Assembly (NCBI GenBank): GCA_050290185.1
Contig: JBNKHE010000012.1
Coordinates: 1 to 47,830, forward strand
Length of the DNA: 47,830 nucleotides
From: Pontiella sp.
GTDB lineage: Bacteria; Verrucomicrobiota; Kiritimatiellia; Kiritimatiellales; Pontiellaceae
Direction: 5' to 3'
Shown here: piece after piece, positions 36,673 through 45,242 of the stretch
Layout: every line of letters begins with the position of its first letter
Position numbering within the stretch: the stretch's first letter is position 1
Notes under the pieces: generated by a model
What the model was told of the DNA's origin: nothing
Seen by the model: only the letters and a program-made list of their open reading frames with translations
Database searches by the model: none
Made by a program: the position numbers and the translations under genes

Positions 36673-36803
36673 TCAAAGGAACGGCGAATTATGCGAATAC
36701 TCGGAGCAATGTCAATACACCGGATTCGCTATTTCTTTTTCCGAACCATCTGCTTTAATCTCGGAAGTTGCTGCCGCGATATGCGCAGCGCAAGGGGAAA
36801 GAA

Positions 36804-38291
36804 ATGAATAATGCCAAAACATGGCGGTGTGCGGTGTGTGGTCATATCCATTACGGGGACACACCACCCGCTACGTGCCCGGTCTGCGGCGTACCCTCAA
36901 GCGAGTTCGAGGAAATCGATGGAAAGACAGCGGAAGCGGACTCCAAAACATCTGCAGCGATAGCCAAGGCATGGAGATGCACCGTATGCGGGTATATCCA
37001 TTATGGCGACGAGCCCCCGGATGAGTGCCCCGTTTGCGGGGCGGCAGCCAACGAGTTCGAAGCCATCGAGCCGCCTAAGGAAGCTTCGGCCACACCGCCG
37101 TCCTCAGCCAGTAAAATCGTCATTTCCGGTAGCGGCATAGCCGGCCTTTCGGCGGCCGAGGGCGCGAGGGAAGCATCGCCGGACGCCGAGATCGTTCTGC
37201 TCACTTCCGAAAATGAACTCCCCTACTACCGCCTGAACCTTACCCGCTATCTCGCGGGCGAAACCTCCGATGATGAACTGCCGATACACCCGGAAACGTG
37301 GTACGCGGAACAACGAATCCAAATACAGACCGGGGCACAGTTGACCCGGCTCCTTCCCCAGGAGATGGCGATCGAGCTCGCCGATGGAACACACATCGAA
37401 TACGACAAGCTCATCGTAGCAACGGGTGCCCGGCCCTTCATACCCCCAATCCCCGGCAACGACCGCCCCCATGTCCATACGCTCCGCACAGCTCATGATG
37501 CAAAAGCAATTCTTGCCGCAGTAAAGCAAGGAACACAGGTGGTTTGCATCGGCGGCGGGATTCTGGGCCTGGAAACAGCGGGAGCCCTGGCCCGGCAAGG
37601 TGCGGACGTAACGGTACTGGAGGCCTTCGACTATCTGATGCCCCGACAGCTGAATGCCGAAGGGAGCGAGGTGCTTGCCAGGCACCTCTATACCCTCGGG
37701 ATCGATGTCCTGACCCAGACCAAGACGGAAAGAATTGAAACCAAAACCGTCGAACTGGCGGATGGCGGCGCGTTACCGGCCGATCTGGTGGTGATCACGG
37801 TGGGCGTGCGCGCCAATACCGGCGTGCTGGCAGAAGCGGGCCTCCCTGTGCATCAGGGAGTTCTCGTGGACAACTTCATGCGCACCTCGAATCCCAACAT
37901 TCTGGCTGCGGGGGATGTTTGCGAGCATGACGGTGTGATGTATGGCTCCTGGGCGGCGGCGAAGTATCAGGGAAAGATCGCCGGCATGAATGCCGCCGGT
38001 GTGCCGACAGAGTTTGGCGGCATTCCCCGGGCACACACCCTGAAGGTACTGGACAAAAACATGTTCAGCATAGGCGAAATTTCATCGCGCGATGGCAGCT
38101 ACATGAAAATTGATGAACAGCTCGACGAAAACTATCGGATGTTCATGCTGCATGACAATGTTCTGATCGGGGCATTGCTGATTGGGGACCTCTCGCTGAT
38201 GGCCCCATGCCGTAAAGCCATAGAACACGCCACCGCGCTGGGTTCCATGACAACCGCCGAACAAGTGGCCGCAGCCCTCATAGAGAGTTAA
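36804..38291 (+). CDS. FAD-dependent NAD(P)H oxidoreductase with two N-terminal rubredoxin-like domains
   Basis: WRC.VCG.IHYG..PP..CPVCG twice; GSGIAG, YDKL.VATGA, GGGILGLE, AAGD; start moved to ATG 36804. Confidence 0.88.
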   Translation: MNNAKTWRCAVCGHIHYGDTPPATCPVCGVPSSEFEEIDGKTAEADSKTSAAIAKAWRCTVCGYIHYGDEPPDECPVCGAAANEFEAIEPPKEASATPPSSASKIVISGSGIAGLSAAEGAREASPDAEIVLLTSENELPYYRLNLTRYLAGETSDDELPIHPETWYAEQRIQIQTGAQLTRLLPQEMAIELADGTHIEYDKLIVATGARPFIPPIPGNDRPHVHTLRTAHDAKAILAAVKQGTQVVCIGGGILGLETAGALARQGADVTVLEAFDYLMPRQLNAEGSEVLARHLYTLGIDVLTQTKTERIETKTVELADGGALPADLVVITVGVRANTGVLAEAGLPVHQGVLVDNFMRTSNPNILAAGDVCEHDGVMYGSWAAAKYQGKIAGMNAAGVPTEFGGIPRAHTLKVLDKNMFSIGEISSRDGSYMKIDEQLDENYRMFMLHDNVLIGALLIGDLSLMAPCRKAIEHATALGSMTTAEQVAAALIES

Positions 38292-39604: not shown

Positions 39605-40174
39605 ATGGAACGTTATCCAAATATCGGAAAGCTGGTACTGGCCAGTGCATCGCCCCGGCGCCGCGATCTGCTTGCTTCGCTCGGGGTTGAGTTTACCGTT
39701 CAGGTACCCGAAACCGACGAAACACCAAGGGCAGGGGAACTCCCGCATAGCTTTGCCGAGCGCCTGGCCGGCGAAAAGGCGGCGGCCATTCATGCAACCC
39801 CGGATACCACCGTAATCGCAGCGGACACGATCGTGGTTCAAGGCAGCGCGATTCTCGGCAAACCTTCGGACGAAACCGAGGCGTTTAAAATGCTCTCTGG
39901 CCTTTCCGGGCAATCTCATCAGGTGATCACCGCGATCTGTGTTAAACAGGGAGAACGGCGCCACGTATTTTCGGTTACCACCGAAGTCGTTTTCCGTGCG
40001 CTGGTTCAGTCGGAAATCGAAACCTACATCGCCTCCGGCTGCCCGATGGATAAAGCGGGGGCATACGCCATTCAGGGTGGCGCCGCCCATATGGTGCGTT
40101 CCATCAACGGATCCTACACCAACGTCGTGGGATTACCGCTGTGCGAACTTCATGAAGCCTTGGCGTCTTTTTGA
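39605..40174 (+). CDS. maf: Maf-family nucleoside triphosphate pyrophosphatase
   Basis: LASASPRR, AADTIV, LGKP, DKAGAYAIQG, NVVGLP. Confidence 0.94.
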   Translation: MERYPNIGKLVLASASPRRRDLLASLGVEFTVQVPETDETPRAGELPHSFAERLAGEKAAAIHATPDTTVIAADTIVVQGSAILGKPSDETEAFKMLSGLSGQSHQVITAICVKQGERRHVFSVTTEVVFRALVQSEIETYIASGCPMDKAGAYAIQGGAAHMVRSINGSYTNVVGLPLCELHEALASF

Positions 40175-40231: not shown

Positions 40232-41743
40232 ATGCTGAAATTCGTACAAATAGCCTTTTGTGAATATATCCCCATGCAAGGGTGCATGGGTACGGCTGGC
40301 TTTCCCGAATGGCTACAGAGGAGCGACGCGTCCGATACTTTCCTTACGGTCATCCTGTCGTTCATCATATTGATGCTGATCGGCATACTCCGGCATATTC
40401 GGCGAATGCGCATTGCATTGACCCGGGAGGCGTTGGCCTTACAGAAAAGTGAAGAGCATATTCGCGCGATGGGTGATAATCTATCGAACGTAACCATTTT
40501 CCAGCTTGTGCACGACCCCCATGCCGGGACCTTCAGCTTCGGCTTTATAAGCAAGGGTGTGGAACACACCTTGGGGGTAGACCGCACGCATATCATGGAT
40601 GACGCCCGAATAGTGCTGGATCTGGTCTTCGAAGAAGACATGGCCAAACTCAATGCGGCCCTCGCTGCGGCAACTGAACATCTTGAACCAACCAACATGG
40701 AAATCCGCATCCTTGATGCGACCGGAACATACAAATGGCTGCACATCAATGCCATGCCCCAATATATTGAACAATCGATTGTCTGGGACGGGTTCATGAT
40801 GGATATCTCGGATAAGAAGGCCATCGAACTGTCCGTGGTTGAGGAAAGCCGCAATTTTCAAAATCTATTTGAAACCATCGATGATTTCCTGCTGGTTTGC
40901 GATATGGACGGAAAGCTCCTGCACTCCAATCCGGCACTGGAGCAACGTCTGGGCTATTCCCATCAGGAACTTGCCGAGATGAGCATCTTTGAGCTCTACC
41001 CCGGAGACGCCCAGCCGGATGTCTACCGGACGATCGCCGAACTGCATTCGGATCCGTCGGCTACCTGCAGAGTACCCCTTCAAATGAGAAGCGGCGCGCA
41101 CATTCTAGTCGAAATGAACCTATTCCAGGGAACCTGGAAGCAGACCAGAGCCATCTTTGGCGTTGCCCGTGACGTTGCCCGCTTCCAGCAAACCGAAATC
41201 GCACTGCGGGAATCCCAGAAAATTCTTCAACTCATCATCGATTCCATTCCCATGTCGATCTTCTGGAAAGACAAGGACTCCGTATATCTCGGATGCAACA
41301 ACGCCTTCATTCAGGAATGTCAACTCAACCATATCGATGACGTTGTCGGGAAAACGCCGTTTGATCTCTTCGACCAGCCCTTGGCAATGAACGTGATTGA
41401 AAGAGATCAAAGTGTACTGAATACCAATGAGTCCCTGATGAACCATTCCGAGTCGCATACCTTGCCCGACGGACGGATCGGGTGGCGTGAGATCAGCCTG
41501 ATTCCCATGAGAAGCGAACTAGGAAGGGCCATCGGCGTGCTGGGTGTCTGGCGCGACGTCACCGAACAAAACAAAGCGGAAGAACGCCTCAAACGCACAC
41601 TGGACGACATGGAACGCTTCAACCAGCTTATGCGTGGCCGCGAGCGACGCACATTGGAACTGAAGGATGAAATTAACGATCTGCTGTTGGAGCTGGAAAG
41701 GCCAAAGAAATACCGCACCACTGCAGAAGACATGACACAATGA
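40232..41743 (+). CDS. Membrane-anchored triple-PAS sensor without output domain, ending in a coiled-coil tail
   Basis: One TM, three PAS/PAC units (..MDISDKK, ..RDVA, FWKD...YLGCN..RDVTEQ), terminal ERFN..GRE.R..LK.EIN; no HisKA, GGDEF or REC. Confidence 0.85.
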   Translation: MLKFVQIAFCEYIPMQGCMGTAGFPEWLQRSDASDTFLTVILSFIILMLIGILRHIRRMRIALTREALALQKSEEHIRAMGDNLSNVTIFQLVHDPHAGTFSFGFISKGVEHTLGVDRTHIMDDARIVLDLVFEEDMAKLNAALAAATEHLEPTNMEIRILDATGTYKWLHINAMPQYIEQSIVWDGFMMDISDKKAIELSVVEESRNFQNLFETIDDFLLVCDMDGKLLHSNPALEQRLGYSHQELAEMSIFELYPGDAQPDVYRTIAELHSDPSATCRVPLQMRSGAHILVEMNLFQGTWKQTRAIFGVARDVARFQQTEIALRESQKILQLIIDSIPMSIFWKDKDSVYLGCNNAFIQECQLNHIDDVVGKTPFDLFDQPLAMNVIERDQSVLNTNESLMNHSESHTLPDGRIGWREISLIPMRSELGRAIGVLGVWRDVTEQNKAEERLKRTLDDMERFNQLMRGRERRTLELKDEINDLLLELERPKKYRTTAEDMTQ

Positions 41744-42227
41744 AAAAAGGTAACATAACGCCTGCCATTAAACATCCGTACCGCTGCTTCGGAGTAGCCG
41801 TCGCAGTCTATATTTCTGGCGTATTCGGCTTTTCGGCATGGTCCTTTGTTACACACCACGCAATGATGGATGCCGCAGAAGGCCCGTTATTGAACTCACA
41901 AATAATAAGTTCACTGAAATTGCCCTGGTCGAGTCTTTAGAGAGTCTTTTCCTACTCATAATGTCCTTTATTCTGATCGGCCTTTATCGACGCGCCAGTA
42001 TCCAGAGCACGCACCACATGGAAGAGCTCAATGCACAGCTTAAACAGGATTTCCAGCGATTGAAAAAACACGAGACGGAACTTGAGGATGCGATTCGGGA
42101 TCTTGAGCGGTTCAACGCCTTGGCCACGGGCCGCGAGCAACGGATTCTTAAACTCAAGACCGAAGTGAACACGCTTCTCCAGACCATGAACCAGCCCAAG
42201 CGCTACGACACCGCACCATCTGAATAG
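41740..42227 (+). CDS. Two-TM membrane protein with the same coiled-coil tail; split by a 1-nt frameshift
   Basis: ORF 41740-41940 (TM1, ATGA overlap with the upstream gene) and ORF 41838-42227 (TM2 plus ERFN..GRE tail) join if one C is added at GGCCC 41881-85. Confidence 0.65.
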
Positions 42228-42246
42228 GCATCGCTGATTCAATACC

Positions 42247-44751
42247 ATGAGCAAGGGAATCAAAATCGAATACAGATTAGGCATCGGATATGCCGTGGGT
42301 GCCGTGGCAAACGTCCTGTTGCTTGCTCTTGCCATCTATGGCCTCTCCTTGGTCACCGATCCCTTTTTCTTCTATTTCGCAGGACTATTCCTCTTGATTG
42401 TGGCCTTCGTCGGCTATCTGGCAGGACGTTTTGTCGGCCGACGCATAGAACAGGAAAATGCGCTGAACAATCAGGAATTAGCGGAACAGCTCGAATCCAT
42501 GCAGGCCTTGGCGAAAGCAAACGAATTTCTCGAGACCGAAGCCGCCGGATTGAAGAAACACCGCAAGGCGCTCTTAAGCATCATGGAAGATGCCGAACGC
42601 TACAACCTGGAGCTGAAGCGGGAAGTGGCCGAACGAAAGAACGCCGAAGCAGAAGCGGCCCACGCCCGCGATAACATGGAACTGATTCTATACGGTGGAG
42701 ATCTGGGATACTGGAACTGGGATATTGCCGAGAACAACTATACGTTCAACGAACGCTTCGCAGCCATTCTTGGGATCCCGTTTGAAAAGATCGATACGTA
42801 TGCGGACTGGAGAAGCCGGCACATTCATGCGGACGATCTCGAACAGGTCAAGCATGAGCTCACACTCCATCTGGAGGGCAAAAGCGATATCTTTACCTGC
42901 GAATACCGTATGCACCGCAATAATGAATGGATATGGATTCTCGACCGCGGCCGCGTTATCGAACGCAACAAGGAGGACAAACCGGTTCGCATGGTTGGAA
43001 CCCTGCTCGATATTACCGACCGTAAAAGATACGAACTCGAAACCAAGGAAGCAAACCGGATGCTGGATAAACGAAGCCGCGAGCTCGAAGAAAACCAGCA
43101 CATTATCATGGGTATGATGGAAGATGCCAACGACGCCCGCGAAAGCCTAGAGCAAGCCAACCGACAGCTGTTGATCGCCCGCGAAAAAGCCGAACAGGCC
43201 ACCCGGGCAAAATCCGACTTTCTTGCCAGCATGAGCCACGAAATCCGTACGCCGATGAACGGCATCATTGGAACGGCCAGTCTCCTGAACGACACGAACC
43301 TCAACCCTGAACAGGAGGAATATCTCCGCATTGTACAGACCTCCGGCGATGCCCTTCTTACTCTGCTCAACGACATTCTGGACTTCTCAAAGATCGAGGC
43401 GGGGAAACTCGATCTGGAGCAGCACTCCTTCGACCTGCGCGAAGTTTGCGAGCACATCACGGAACTGCTCATGCCCACGGCATTGGAAAAGGGCATCGAT
43501 TTGATTCTGCGCTACGCGCCCGGAACCCCCCCGCTGGTCATAGGAGATGCAGGGAGAGTCCGGCAGGTTCTTATGAACCTGATCGGCAATGCGCTTAAAT
43601 TCACGCGGGAAGGCTATGTCTTCATCGATATCGAAGCTGTGGCCGGCACAGACATCGAGACCACGATCCACTTTTCCATCAAAGATACCGGCATCGGTAT
43701 TTCGCGCGAAGAACTCCCCCTGCTCTTTGAAAAATTCTCGCAAGCCGACTCATCCACCACCCGCGAATTCGGAGGAACCGGGCTGGGACTGGCCATCTGC
43801 AAACAACTCATCACACTCATGGGCGGAAAAATCGGTATGGAAAGCGAGCTCGGCAAGGGTTCCAATTTCTGGTTCCGGCTCAACCTTCCCGTATCCTCCC
43901 AACCGCAACAGCGCACAATCGACAGAACCTTCTTCAATGGCGAGGGCGTCGTGACCATCGATGAAAACATAAACATGGGTAAAATCTTAGTGGAGTGGTT
44001 GAATCGCTGGGGCTTGAAGGCCGAGACTGCAGCATCCCTGAAAGATGCGGAACGCACTGTCCGCGAAAACCGTTGCCGGATTGTGTTGATGGAGGAACAT
44101 CTCGCCTACGACACCGAGAATCCATTCCTTAACAATCCCGAATTTGAATATCTCTCCCTGTTCATCGTCTGCTCGGCTGCCAACCGCGATTTCCGCTCAC
44201 TTGATCATGCCGGACAGACCACGAACCTCATAAAACCCATTCGGCTCGGAACCCTGCTTTCAAAAATCTCCCTTGTTCTGGACTATCCCGTCACGCTCGA
44301 CAGCCTCCATACAGAAGGGGTGAAAACCGCCGCCATACCGGTTGTCGAAATGTCCTCCATCGAATTGGTCGGCACCCATCGTATTCTTGTGGTCGAAGAT
44401 AATCTGGTCAATCAAACGGTAGCCAAACGGATCCTTGTCAAGGAGGGGTACGAGGTCGATGTGGCCGAAAATGGCGAACAGGCTGTGCACAAGATTGGCA
44501 ATGGTAGCAAATACGACCTCATCTTCATGGACTGCCAAATGCCGCGCATGGATGGCTACGAAGCATCCCGGAGGATTCGCAGCATGGAGGAAACGGTCCA
44601 TGCCGAACCCCGAATTCCGATCATTGCGCTAACTGCCAATGCGATGCAGGGCGACCGGCAAAAGTGCTTGGATGCGGGGATGGATGACTACATCGCCAAA
44701 CCGGTCAAAAAAGAGGCCATTTTTGAAATGCTGCGACGGCATCTGGACTAG
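42247..44751 (+). CDS. Hybrid sensor histidine kinase (2 TM, PAS, HisKA, HATPase, pseudo-REC, REC)
   Basis: [33 protein letters not shown]...[21 protein letters not shown]; first REC has IVLME. Confidence 0.95.
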
Positions 44752-44756
44752 AGGCA

Positions 44757-45242
44757 TCAGTCCGGCAACCGGCAATCCTGACAACGCTGCTTCTTGCACC
44801 CCACCGCCTTGCAGAAATAGGCCTCTGCACTCTCCTGCCAGCTTGCATTGAAACTGGGGCACTTTTCGGTGTACTCGGCAAACCGGACGAACCGCTGAAG
44901 AATATCGTCCGGAATCGTATGCTCCATCGAACAGGCAAACTCCTCCGCCTCGGCCCGCTCGACTCCCAGCACCTGCGTAAAGAAATGCAGCAAGGCCTCG
45001 TGCTTCACGGCAATGCGGCCGGCAATCTCGCGGCCCTCGTCGGTCAAGGTGACCGATGCATAGGGAGCATAGTTGATCAAGTCCCGGTCCGCCAAGGCCT
45101 TCAATGCCCCCGTAACCGATGCGGCCCGGACCTTCATCCGCTTCGCGATCTCCTTGGGACGCGCCTTCCCCTCTTCTCTGGAAAGAAAGAAGATCGTTTC
45201 CAGATAGTCTTCAAGGCTGGCGCTGAGTTCGGGGCTGTTCAT
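44757..45242 (-). CDS. DtxR/MntR-family metal-dependent repressor with Cys-rich tail
   Basis: SLEDYLE.I, IA....V..ASVT.AL..L, LT..G...A, H..L..FF..VLG, AC.MEH. Confidence 0.9.
   Translation of the reverse strand: MNSPELSASLEDYLETIFFLSREEGKARPKEIAKRMKVRAASVTGALKALADRDLINYAPYASVTLTDEGREIAGRIAVKHEALLHFFTQVLGVERAEAEEFACSMEHTIPDDILQRFVRFAEYTEKCPSFNASWQESAEAYFCKAVGCKKQRCQDCRLPD

Follow-up and report, generated by a model that had tools for sequence, protein, structure and literature searches.

A conserved sensor tail and a kinase helix as putative halves of a portable coiled-coil junction in a Pontiella operon and beyond

The operon and its three genes

The DNA considered here is a stretch of 47,830 nucleotides (the window) from Pontiella sp. 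(Kiritimatiellales, Verrucomicrobiota; contig JBNKHE010000012.1), and its subject of interest is an operon of three co-oriented genes (Table 1). Open reading frame (ORF) 1 encodes a sensor with three PAS domains, ORF2 a protein of a type with two transmembrane (TM) segments, and ORF3 a hybrid histidine kinase. ORF1 and ORF2 both end in a short conserved segment, here called the GRE tail, and ORF3 carries two copies of a conserved helix, here called MEDA. The evidence set out below suggests that tail and helix are probably the two halves of a portable coiled-coil junction, a plug and a socket, which joins sensor chains to the signalling helix of a kinase.

Named homologues of the operon proteins are found in Pontiella and in other Kiritimatiellales. 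ORF1 has a single hydrophobic segment and matches no catalytic family in a Pfam scan, and 120 listed relatives have PAS-family matches only. The first-pass annotation of this DNA, made from the sequence alone, had described ORF1 as a triple-PAS protein with a C-terminal tail and without catalytic output, and this is confirmed by its coordinates and by Pfam.

ORF2 had been described in the same annotation as a 2-TM protein with a related tail. The tail is present, but the single open frame is not: TM1 lies in one frame and TM2 with the tail in another, each matching the intact gene of relatives, and the frame with the tail therefore has one TM segment. Compared with the closest aligned relative, the window lacks one base in the loop between the two TM segments. 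No RNA run is listed among the sequencing runs that contain this DNA. The same letters occur in contigs from four runs of one study (possibly the source of this DNA), three of which span the stretch unbroken, so the break is probably real, and the ORF2 arm has probably been lost to a recent frameshift in this strain. In relatives, intact ORF2 is a 2-TM protein which is either short (about 160 amino acids) or longer (to over 300 amino acids). The variation in size lies in the region before the last TM segment, and the tail is constant.

ORF3 has the make-up of a hybrid histidine kinase of the BarA/ArcB-like kind, with a HisKA domain carrying its His (H-box intact), HATPase_c, and a receiver with its Asp. 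It falls below the cut-offs of the named equivalogs (BarA, TorS, ArcB, RcsC), its best score being 443 bits against a cut-off of 890. Its two hydrophobic segments stand back to back, and its PAS domain is of the PAS_3 family; a kinase with almost no outside loop and two MEDA helices, as had been annotated, is indeed what is found. Between HATPase_c and the C-terminal receiver, residues of about 563-680 (window about 43930-44290) look by eye like a degenerate receiver, for which there is no Pfam match.

Table 1. Features of the Pontiella operon and its flanks, in positions of the window.
Feature	Position	Strand	Length	Remarks
ORF1: one N-terminal TM segment, three PAS domains, C-terminal GRE tail	40232-41743	+	503 amino acids	
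GRE tail 1 (plug) of ORF1	41609-41713	+		putative partner MEDA2
ORF2, whole gene, 2-TM-tail type	41740-42227	+		frameshifted here
ORF2, 5' part: TM1	41740-41940	+		ATG at 41740, overlaps ORF1 stop; out of frame with the rest
ORF2, 3' part: TM2, coiled coil, GRE tail 2	41838-42227	+		open frame carrying the tail
GRE tail 2 (plug) of ORF2	42102-42206	+		near-consensus; putative partner MEDA1
ORF3, hybrid histidine kinase: two TM segments, MEDA1, PAS, MEDA2, HisKA, HATPase_c, receiver	42247-44751	+	834 amino acids	
MEDA1 (socket 1), between TM2 and PAS of ORF3	42562-42594	+		
MEDA2 (socket 2), between PAS and HisKA of ORF3	43096-43128	+		divergent subtype
HisKA and HATPase_c of ORF3	43207-43887	+		Pfam, residues 321-386 and 433-547
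C-terminal receiver of ORF3	44383-44733	+		Pfam, residues 713-829
Maf protein gene	39605-40174			flanks the operon
DtxR/MntR-type repressor gene	44757-45242	opposite to operon		flanks the operon

Anatomy of the tail and the MEDA helix

Both motifs stand well above chance in the genome. A profile search of all 36,566 stop-to-stop frames finds exactly three tails (70-89 bits, the next best match at 10) and exactly three MEDA helices (44-59 bits, the next best at 9); the profiles contained the window's own motifs, and the informative part is the gap to the next match. The third tail and the third MEDA together form a second locus (contig C6, 112159-119207), which is unrelated to the operon. Here a CHASE-PAS-tail gene overlaps the gene of a multi-PAS hybrid kinase, ordered PAS-MEDA-PAS-kinase with one MEDA. 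MEDA is present in 2 of the 16 kinases which a simple H-box/G-box pattern recognises in the genome, and both come after a tail gene.

The R, E and K of the GRE tail are invariant across phyla. The MEDA core reads R-x-A-A-L-N-L-M-E-D-A, with small residues and flanking hydrophobics, a pattern which would be expected of helix packing in a bundle of more than two helices. Both motifs are embedded in continuous coiled coils in which the heptad spacing is kept, as register counts made non-redundant at 70% illustrate. The distance from the PAS end to the tail Arg is 0 modulo 7 in 48 of 54 cases, and that from the PAS end to the phospho-His of ordinary kinases is 6 modulo 7 in 16 of 21. From the MEDA Asp to the His it is 3 modulo 7 in 9/15 and 0 modulo 7 in 6/15; in ORF3 the Asp of MEDA2 lies 38 residues ahead of the phospho-His. 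The tail therefore has Gly (79%) or Asp at the register position that the phospho-His takes in ordinary kinases, which suggests that sensor chains end in a tail instead of the kinase module.

The spacing from TM segment to motif is free of insertions and deletions in 12 of 12 relatives, with the ORF2 tail at about 49 residues and MEDA1 at 51-58. Such similar distances from the membrane would fit a parallel contact, side by side. Tail 1 and MEDA2, on the other hand, each deviate from the consensus at positions that are otherwise conserved. Tail 1 has R at -2, R at +2 and T at +4 relative to the invariant Arg, and MEDA2 has Q, I and G where the general consensus has R, A and N. This joint deviation is what an orthogonal pair would be expected to display.

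Linkage of the two motifs across genomes

In the loci seeded with the tail, which come from many phyla, the MEDA profile was cross-validated two-fold. It gave 59 matches, all on the strand of the tail, with none on the opposite strand or in reversed sequences. MEDA lies within 5 kb downstream of the tail in 37 of the 48 loci that are long enough and upstream in 1 of 52. The converse set was seeded with MEDA from 80 of 122 metagenome matches taken with their flanks, and comprised 73 loci after removal of three without the seed and four duplicates. Here a tail is found within 5 kb upstream in 28/29 loci and downstream in 4/26, never on the other strand. The tail is C-terminal, lying within about 35 residues of the frame end in 88/89 cases and, in the MEDA-seeded set, in 57/57.

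Whole genomes give the same picture (all at E ≤ 0.001 unless stated). In an evenly drawn phylum sample around a Geobacter genome, MEDA occurs in 11 of 18 tail-positive genomes and in none of 83 tail-negative ones (10/17 tail-positive without the seed genome; 13/18 against 4/83 at E ≤ 0.01). Around a Cupriavidus genome (Pseudomonadota) the counts are 33/46 and 1/205, and in the window's own family 33/34 and 0/5. Tail-positive genomes thus make up about 18% of each of the two phylum samples (18/101 and 46/251). These counts include kin and are not independent, but the pattern of linkage recurs in three separate groups. The first-pass annotation had proposed to check co-occurrence and adjacency with hidden Markov models, and whichever motif is taken as the starting point, both greatly exceed the background.

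In the sample around Cupriavidus, 39 of the 41 MEDA matches have a same-strand tail within 4 kb upstream, and 22 of the 41 share the tail's open frame. Signalling in trans, as originally proposed, would apply to the separate genes of the Pontiella operon but is not general, these 22 Pseudomonadota matches being fusions of both motifs in one chain.

Loss of ORF2 and decay of MEDA1

A natural knock-out is provided by the orthologous operons, 32 of which were compared, with the presence of ORF2 assigned by profile search. ORF2 is present in 27, and in these MEDA1 keeps 9-11 of its 11 core residues, with the MEDA letters intact in 27/27. In the other five ORF1 abuts the kinase and there is no second tail in the operon; other tails listed for these five genomes lie on other contigs. 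MEDA1 in these operons keeps only 3, 6, 7, 5 and 8 of the 11 core residues, and MED is changed in 5/5. The decay is confined to this site, MEDA2 keeping 9-11 of 11 and the flanks of MEDA1 remaining in the normal range. Identity from PAS to H-box is 0.70-0.81 in the operons without ORF2, compared with 0.57-0.83 in the others. In a tree, three of the ORF2-less operons group as a clade (support 97/95), and the other two are separate tips whose placement is poor.

As MEDA1 is altered only where ORF2 has been lost, it would appear to exist for the tail of ORF2, which by elimination leaves MEDA2 for the tail of ORF1. This co-loss is the best evidence for the putative assignment of ORF2 to MEDA1 and of ORF1 to MEDA2, and both the membrane distances of the ORF2 tail and MEDA1 and the joint deviation of tail 1 and MEDA2 agree with it. 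The earlier proposal of two tails for two sites fits this operon, therefore, but one tail per site is not a general rule, since seven tails accompany one MEDA in Geobacter (see below).

Distribution and diversity of tail and MEDA proteins

Out of 1.84 billion representatives, a tail profile built from 18 sequences matches at least 11,349 protein clusters (E ≤ 0.001), and in 149 of the 150 best cluster matches the last tail lies no more than 30 residues from the protein end. A scan of species genomes with a tail pattern, biased to the strongest tail subtype, gave at least 604 stretches. The best 80 correspond to 77 loci spanning Verrucomicrobiota, Nitrospirota, Geobacteraceae, Pseudomonadota, Bacteroidota, Planctomycetota, Acidobacteriota, Cloacimonadota, Patescibacteria and an archaeon. 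Viral contigs contained no exact match to one tail pattern.

Tail proteins carry a wide range of input domains. From 92 frames with a tail, 69 were complete, at least 100 amino acids long and free of MEDA, and 67 of these were scanned after removal of two doubtful matches (frames starting where a tail ends). They contain PAS (49), receiver (21), CheR (13), CheB (12) and GAF (11) domains, as well as SBP, PocR, and single cases of AmtB, ETR1_N, KaiB or CHASE. Of the 32 Pfam families matched by these proteins, the 25 shown include none of kinases, cyclases or phosphodiesterases, the other seven all being single-member families. A catalytic input module is nevertheless present in some tail proteins, as the 13 CheR and 12 CheB matches indicate.

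Proteins with MEDA, by comparison, are mostly kinases. There were 57 frames with a match, and HATPase_c is found in 39 of the 45 that are complete and tail-free, with HisKA (32), HisKA_3 (4) or HWE (1) as the phospho-acceptor type. Weaker MEDA variants (13-15 bits) are also present in two proteins of the HD-GYP type (PAS-GAF-HD; L245:3694-9127), whose genes each come straight after a tail gene, which suggests that the output need not be a kinase.

The order of the motifs along single chains follows a simple grammar. Among 149 representatives, 118 have a single tail (T) and no MEDA (M), 20 are T-M-T, one is T-M and ten are T-T, so that T, T-M-T or T-M describes 139. Four of the ten T-T proteins have a MEDA variant recognised by eye, five have a degenerate stretch only, and one is fragment-like. 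A PAS-tail-linker-MEDA-kinase fusion family is found in Chlorobi (21 members, among them named Prosthecochloris and Chlorobium). In the 18 members that were measured, the distance from MEDA to the His is always 45 residues, whereas that from tail to MEDA ranges from 66 to 86. A slack covalent linker with fixed helices on either side is as expected if the signal crosses by packing. The AlphaFold2 monomer model of a natural tail-linker-MEDA fusion fragment contains two long helices and a linker of low confidence (predicted template modelling score 0.29), and a Foldseek search of the PDB with it returned nothing at E ≤ 0.001.

Chains and repeats of the motifs also occur. A three-gene chain (L244:2713-10775) runs from a tail-MEDA-tail protein through a MEDA-PAS-tail protein to a MEDA-kinase. 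Soluble kinases without a sensor (P0270-P0276, P0279, P0345, P0354, P0368; L215:8154-9284) carry 3-8 tandem MEDA repeats with a period of 21 residues, which precede HisKA or HisKA_2; in the AlphaFold2 model of one of them a single helix, residues 18-157, runs into the DHp. In a Geobacter cluster (L213/L214, G032:C48:27000-52000), seven tail sensor genes with a short tail variant accompany one kinase with a single MEDA variant. These genes are interspersed with others that resemble, by eye, those of TonB receptors, corrinoid proteins and methyltransferases/UroD.

Neither motif appears to have been described. Pfam and NCBIfam have no model for the members of either group (best E 0.006 or worse), neither profile matched a PDB sequence below E 0.27, and the nearest clusters in the ESM Atlas are short hypothetical proteins with no Pfam family in common. 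A full-text literature search, which included the literal motif strings and had most subscription papers and supplementary alignments outside its scope, found no description of the motifs or of a characterised system with such logic, in line with the initial remark that none was known. Together, this suggests that the pair is a real, widespread and apparently undescribed signalling module.

As to its surroundings, the Pontiella operon lies between a Maf gene and an oppositely oriented gene for a repressor of the DtxR type. Elsewhere in the window, an ORF at 36768-38291 has two rubredoxin-like CxxC pairs followed by a region like a flavoprotein reductase (by eye).

Proposed mechanism and alternative explanations

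If tail and MEDA are two halves of a junction, the sensor (the TM-3xPAS or the 2-TM protein) would pass its signal along its own coiled coil into the GRE tail, which would stand in place of the first DHp helix of a kinase, without the phospho-His and without a catalytic domain behind it. The tail would pack on MEDA, an alanine-rich, broadly hydrophobic segment in register within the coiled coil that leads to the DHp of the kinase. A change in the sensor would then shift the kinase helices and so alter kinase activity. In the Pontiella operon the tail of ORF2 would serve MEDA1 near the membrane and that of ORF1 would serve MEDA2 near the DHp, and one kinase with almost no outside loop could integrate two external inputs with that of its own PAS domain. 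The most economical model would be a parallel 2+2 bundle, in which the terminal helices of the sensor clamp the signalling helices of the kinase and transmit changes of twist or piston type; we infer its binding, stoichiometry, orientation and sign of regulation.

What the sequences themselves provide are the motifs, their linkage, the fusions, the registers and the co-loss. The docking proposed in the first-pass annotation agrees with the genomic co-occurrence, adjacency and co-loss, and physical pairing and transfer of the signal are the steps that would follow from them. We infer that the contact carries the signal and does not only hold the proteins together.

Several points weigh against this interpretation, beginning with the fact that support for docking of tail and MEDA is entirely genomic. 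The losses of ORF2 amount to two or three independent events only, so that a Fisher test on the operons overstates the association, and MEDA1 is fully intact in the window despite the frameshifted ORF2, for which the break would have to be recent. There is no response-regulator gene adjoining the operon in the window. Linkage is also incomplete: 11 of 48 tail loci have no MEDA within 5 kb, and 13/46 and 7/18 tail-positive genomes in the samples around Cupriavidus and Geobacter have none at E ≤ 0.001. Some of these cases are divergent MEDA variants recognised by eye and the rest are unexplained. The MEDA profile was trained on proteins adjacent to tails and could miss MEDA-like helices elsewhere. 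In five of the T-T proteins (P0146, P0163, P0175, P0176, P0199) a TM-CHASE-like-TM insert is accompanied by a degenerate MEDA-like stretch only, and the numbers of tails and sockets often differ, as with the seven tails of Geobacter. Proteins of about 210-245 amino acids with a receiver, an S-helix and a tail are conserved in the genus of the window (L237-L242), each behind a large kinase without MEDA; they were not found in the window's own genome. They could link a second two-component system to a MEDA kinase.

A further expectation was not borne out. Basic tails had been thought to pair with acidic MEDA helices, but the charges are mixed in the operon itself (tail 1 +9/-8, tail 2 +7/-3, MEDA1 +2/-2, MEDA2 0/-2), and the net charge, averaged across 93 tail/MEDA pairs, comes to +2.2 for tails compared with +0.2 for the MEDA core. 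The proposed check by coevolution between the proteins gave no signal above shuffles at the shallow depth available: mutual information with average product correction (APC) over the 93 pairs, a low depth (83 effective), had a best value of 0.169, against a mean of 0.160 and a maximum of 0.208 in shuffles. Complex prediction with alignments, using two MEDA1 and two ORF2-tail chains, reached 0.01 in each of two runs, where the mark is 0.32; as the controls did not fold, this speaks neither for binding nor against it.

The results on linkage and co-loss would fit binding of any kind, and the tail might bind MEDA only as a tether or a constant brake, which localises, stabilises or inhibits the kinase, with the sensor acting through formation or disruption of the complex, in a manner reminiscent of RetS and GacS. 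The occurrence of many tails per socket would suit this too, through competition or titration. We nevertheless regard it as rather unlikely, as the heptads remain in step on either side of the joint and the distance from MEDA to the His is invariant while the covalent linker varies, both of which mechanical coupling predicts. Moreover, the fused forms (22 of the 41 MEDA matches around Cupriavidus) keep both motifs and need no tether, and chains such as T-M-T, M-T and M-kinase resemble relays. A bridging component, whether protein or small molecule, to which tail and MEDA both bind would leave similar traces of co-occurrence and co-loss. No third conserved gene is present in the three-gene operon (32 relatives) or in the two-gene C6 locus, distant loci having had no systematic screen, and such a component seems very improbable.

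It is also improbable, if slightly less so than a bridging component, that the tail is a relic of the first DHp helix left by gene fission, which would dimerise the sensor only, with MEDA as an ordinary linker and the neighbouring genes descended from one long kinase gene. The Gly of GRE does lie in the register of the phospho-His, a Phe six residues earlier is common to both, the N-terminal architectures of tail proteins are kinase-like (PAS, receiver and CheR in 49, 21 and 13 of 67), and fused forms are common. However, comparison of the tail with 127 local DHp sequences (hhalign) gave probabilities of 0.95-2.4% in local and 0.05% in global mode, with no similarity past the position of the His and no detectable homology beyond the shared Phe. 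Neither the tail nor MEDA matches a described family or is detectably homologous to HisKA, which for the tail is what the first-pass annotation required. The tail is also far too conserved across phyla, with its invariant R, E and K, and a relic would leave unexplained that MEDA is nearly confined to tail-positive genomes, that MEDA1 alone decays on loss of ORF2, and that MEDA is multiplied in sensorless kinases. A split DHp, with MEDA as the second DHp helix, was rejected: the profile probability is 1%, and membrane geometry favours a parallel contact.

A junction of tail and MEDA therefore remains the reading we favour. A bolder proposition, for and against which we see the case as evenly balanced, is that GRE and MEDA are a general plug-and-socket wiring standard of prokaryotic signalling, comparable in scale to a new family of signalling domains. 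Any plug-ended sensor, receiver or CheB-CheR module could then drive any socketed kinase or HD-GYP-type enzyme. Sockets would stack (up to eight), chains would daisy-link, receiver-plug proteins would connect two-component systems, and orthogonal subtypes (tail 1/MEDA2 and tail 2/MEDA1) would give specificity. A short, recurrent motif pair of this kind would in any case provide a function for thousands of output-less 'PAS domain-containing proteins', explain the sensorless kinases and illustrate how multi-input logic is built in cells without phosphotransfer. It would also be a compact modular part with which synthetic sensors could be wired to kinases, and it makes the sharp prediction of a 2x2 specificity of plugs and sockets within one operon.

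Comparison with known systems

In textbook sensor kinases, sensing and catalysis are coupled in a single chain, and the known accessory sensors are, to our knowledge, one-off solutions. There are precedents for sensors that control a kinase in trans, whereas none was found for a portable module.

The closest parallel to the tail is helix 1 of HisKA/DHp (PF00512). The tail likewise comes after PAS or S-helix linkers, keeps to the same heptad register and has a Phe at -6. It differs in having no His, no second helix and no catalytic domain, and no HisKA match is among the 25 of 32 Pfam families shown for the 67 tail proteins. Its putative partner MEDA, moreover, lies upstream of another protein's own intact DHp.

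HAMP is a parallel four-helix bundle, in which two helices are joined by a connector. If the model is right, the likeness would be that an input helix ends and an output helix takes over by packing, and the fused forms do have a connector. The connector between tail and MEDA is, however, 66-86 residues between the anchors, variable or absent, and the output helix has its own upstream input. HAMP (PF00672) is not among the Pfam families shown for tail or MEDA members. The pair might thus work like a HAMP-style junction split over two chains, and by its sequence matches it belongs to none of the known families. Arrays of chemoreceptors, CheW and CheA offer a different parallel, in which many output-less sensors with a common conserved C-terminal module feed one kinase. 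Neither the MCP signal domain nor an adaptor is among the Pfam families shown for tail proteins, and here a short helix pair on kinases of class I type would take the place of the array.

The S-helix has been described as a conserved coiled-coil module that links signalling domains and has an Arg at a core 'd' position (Anantharaman et al., 2006; PMC1592074). It is presented there as dimerising, and the word 'heterodimer' is absent from the main text of that paper. Where S-helix and tail occur together, the Arg residues of the two are separated by complete heptads (3/3 non-redundant cases). Tail and MEDA lack the central ERT signature (their consensus being GRE and N-L-M-E-D), the tail is terminal, and a single chain can contain both S-helix and tail.

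One signalling unit can also be spread over two polypeptides, as in the split kinase CheA3/CheA4 of Rhodobacter sphaeroides, where the phospho-acceptor and catalytic domains are on separate chains (PMC3591291). The difference is that the kinase of ORF3 is whole and only its input is split. Control of a kinase through contact with a separately encoded protein is known from accessory proteins of histidine kinases (PMC8534201) and from the RetS-GacS heterocomplex (PMC8498467). These proteins touch the kinase at TM, periplasmic or DHp surfaces, in a way specific to each system, whereas one portable pair of tail and MEDA appears to be reused with many sensors and with outputs of the HisKA, HisKA_2/HWE, HisKA_3 and HD-GYP types.

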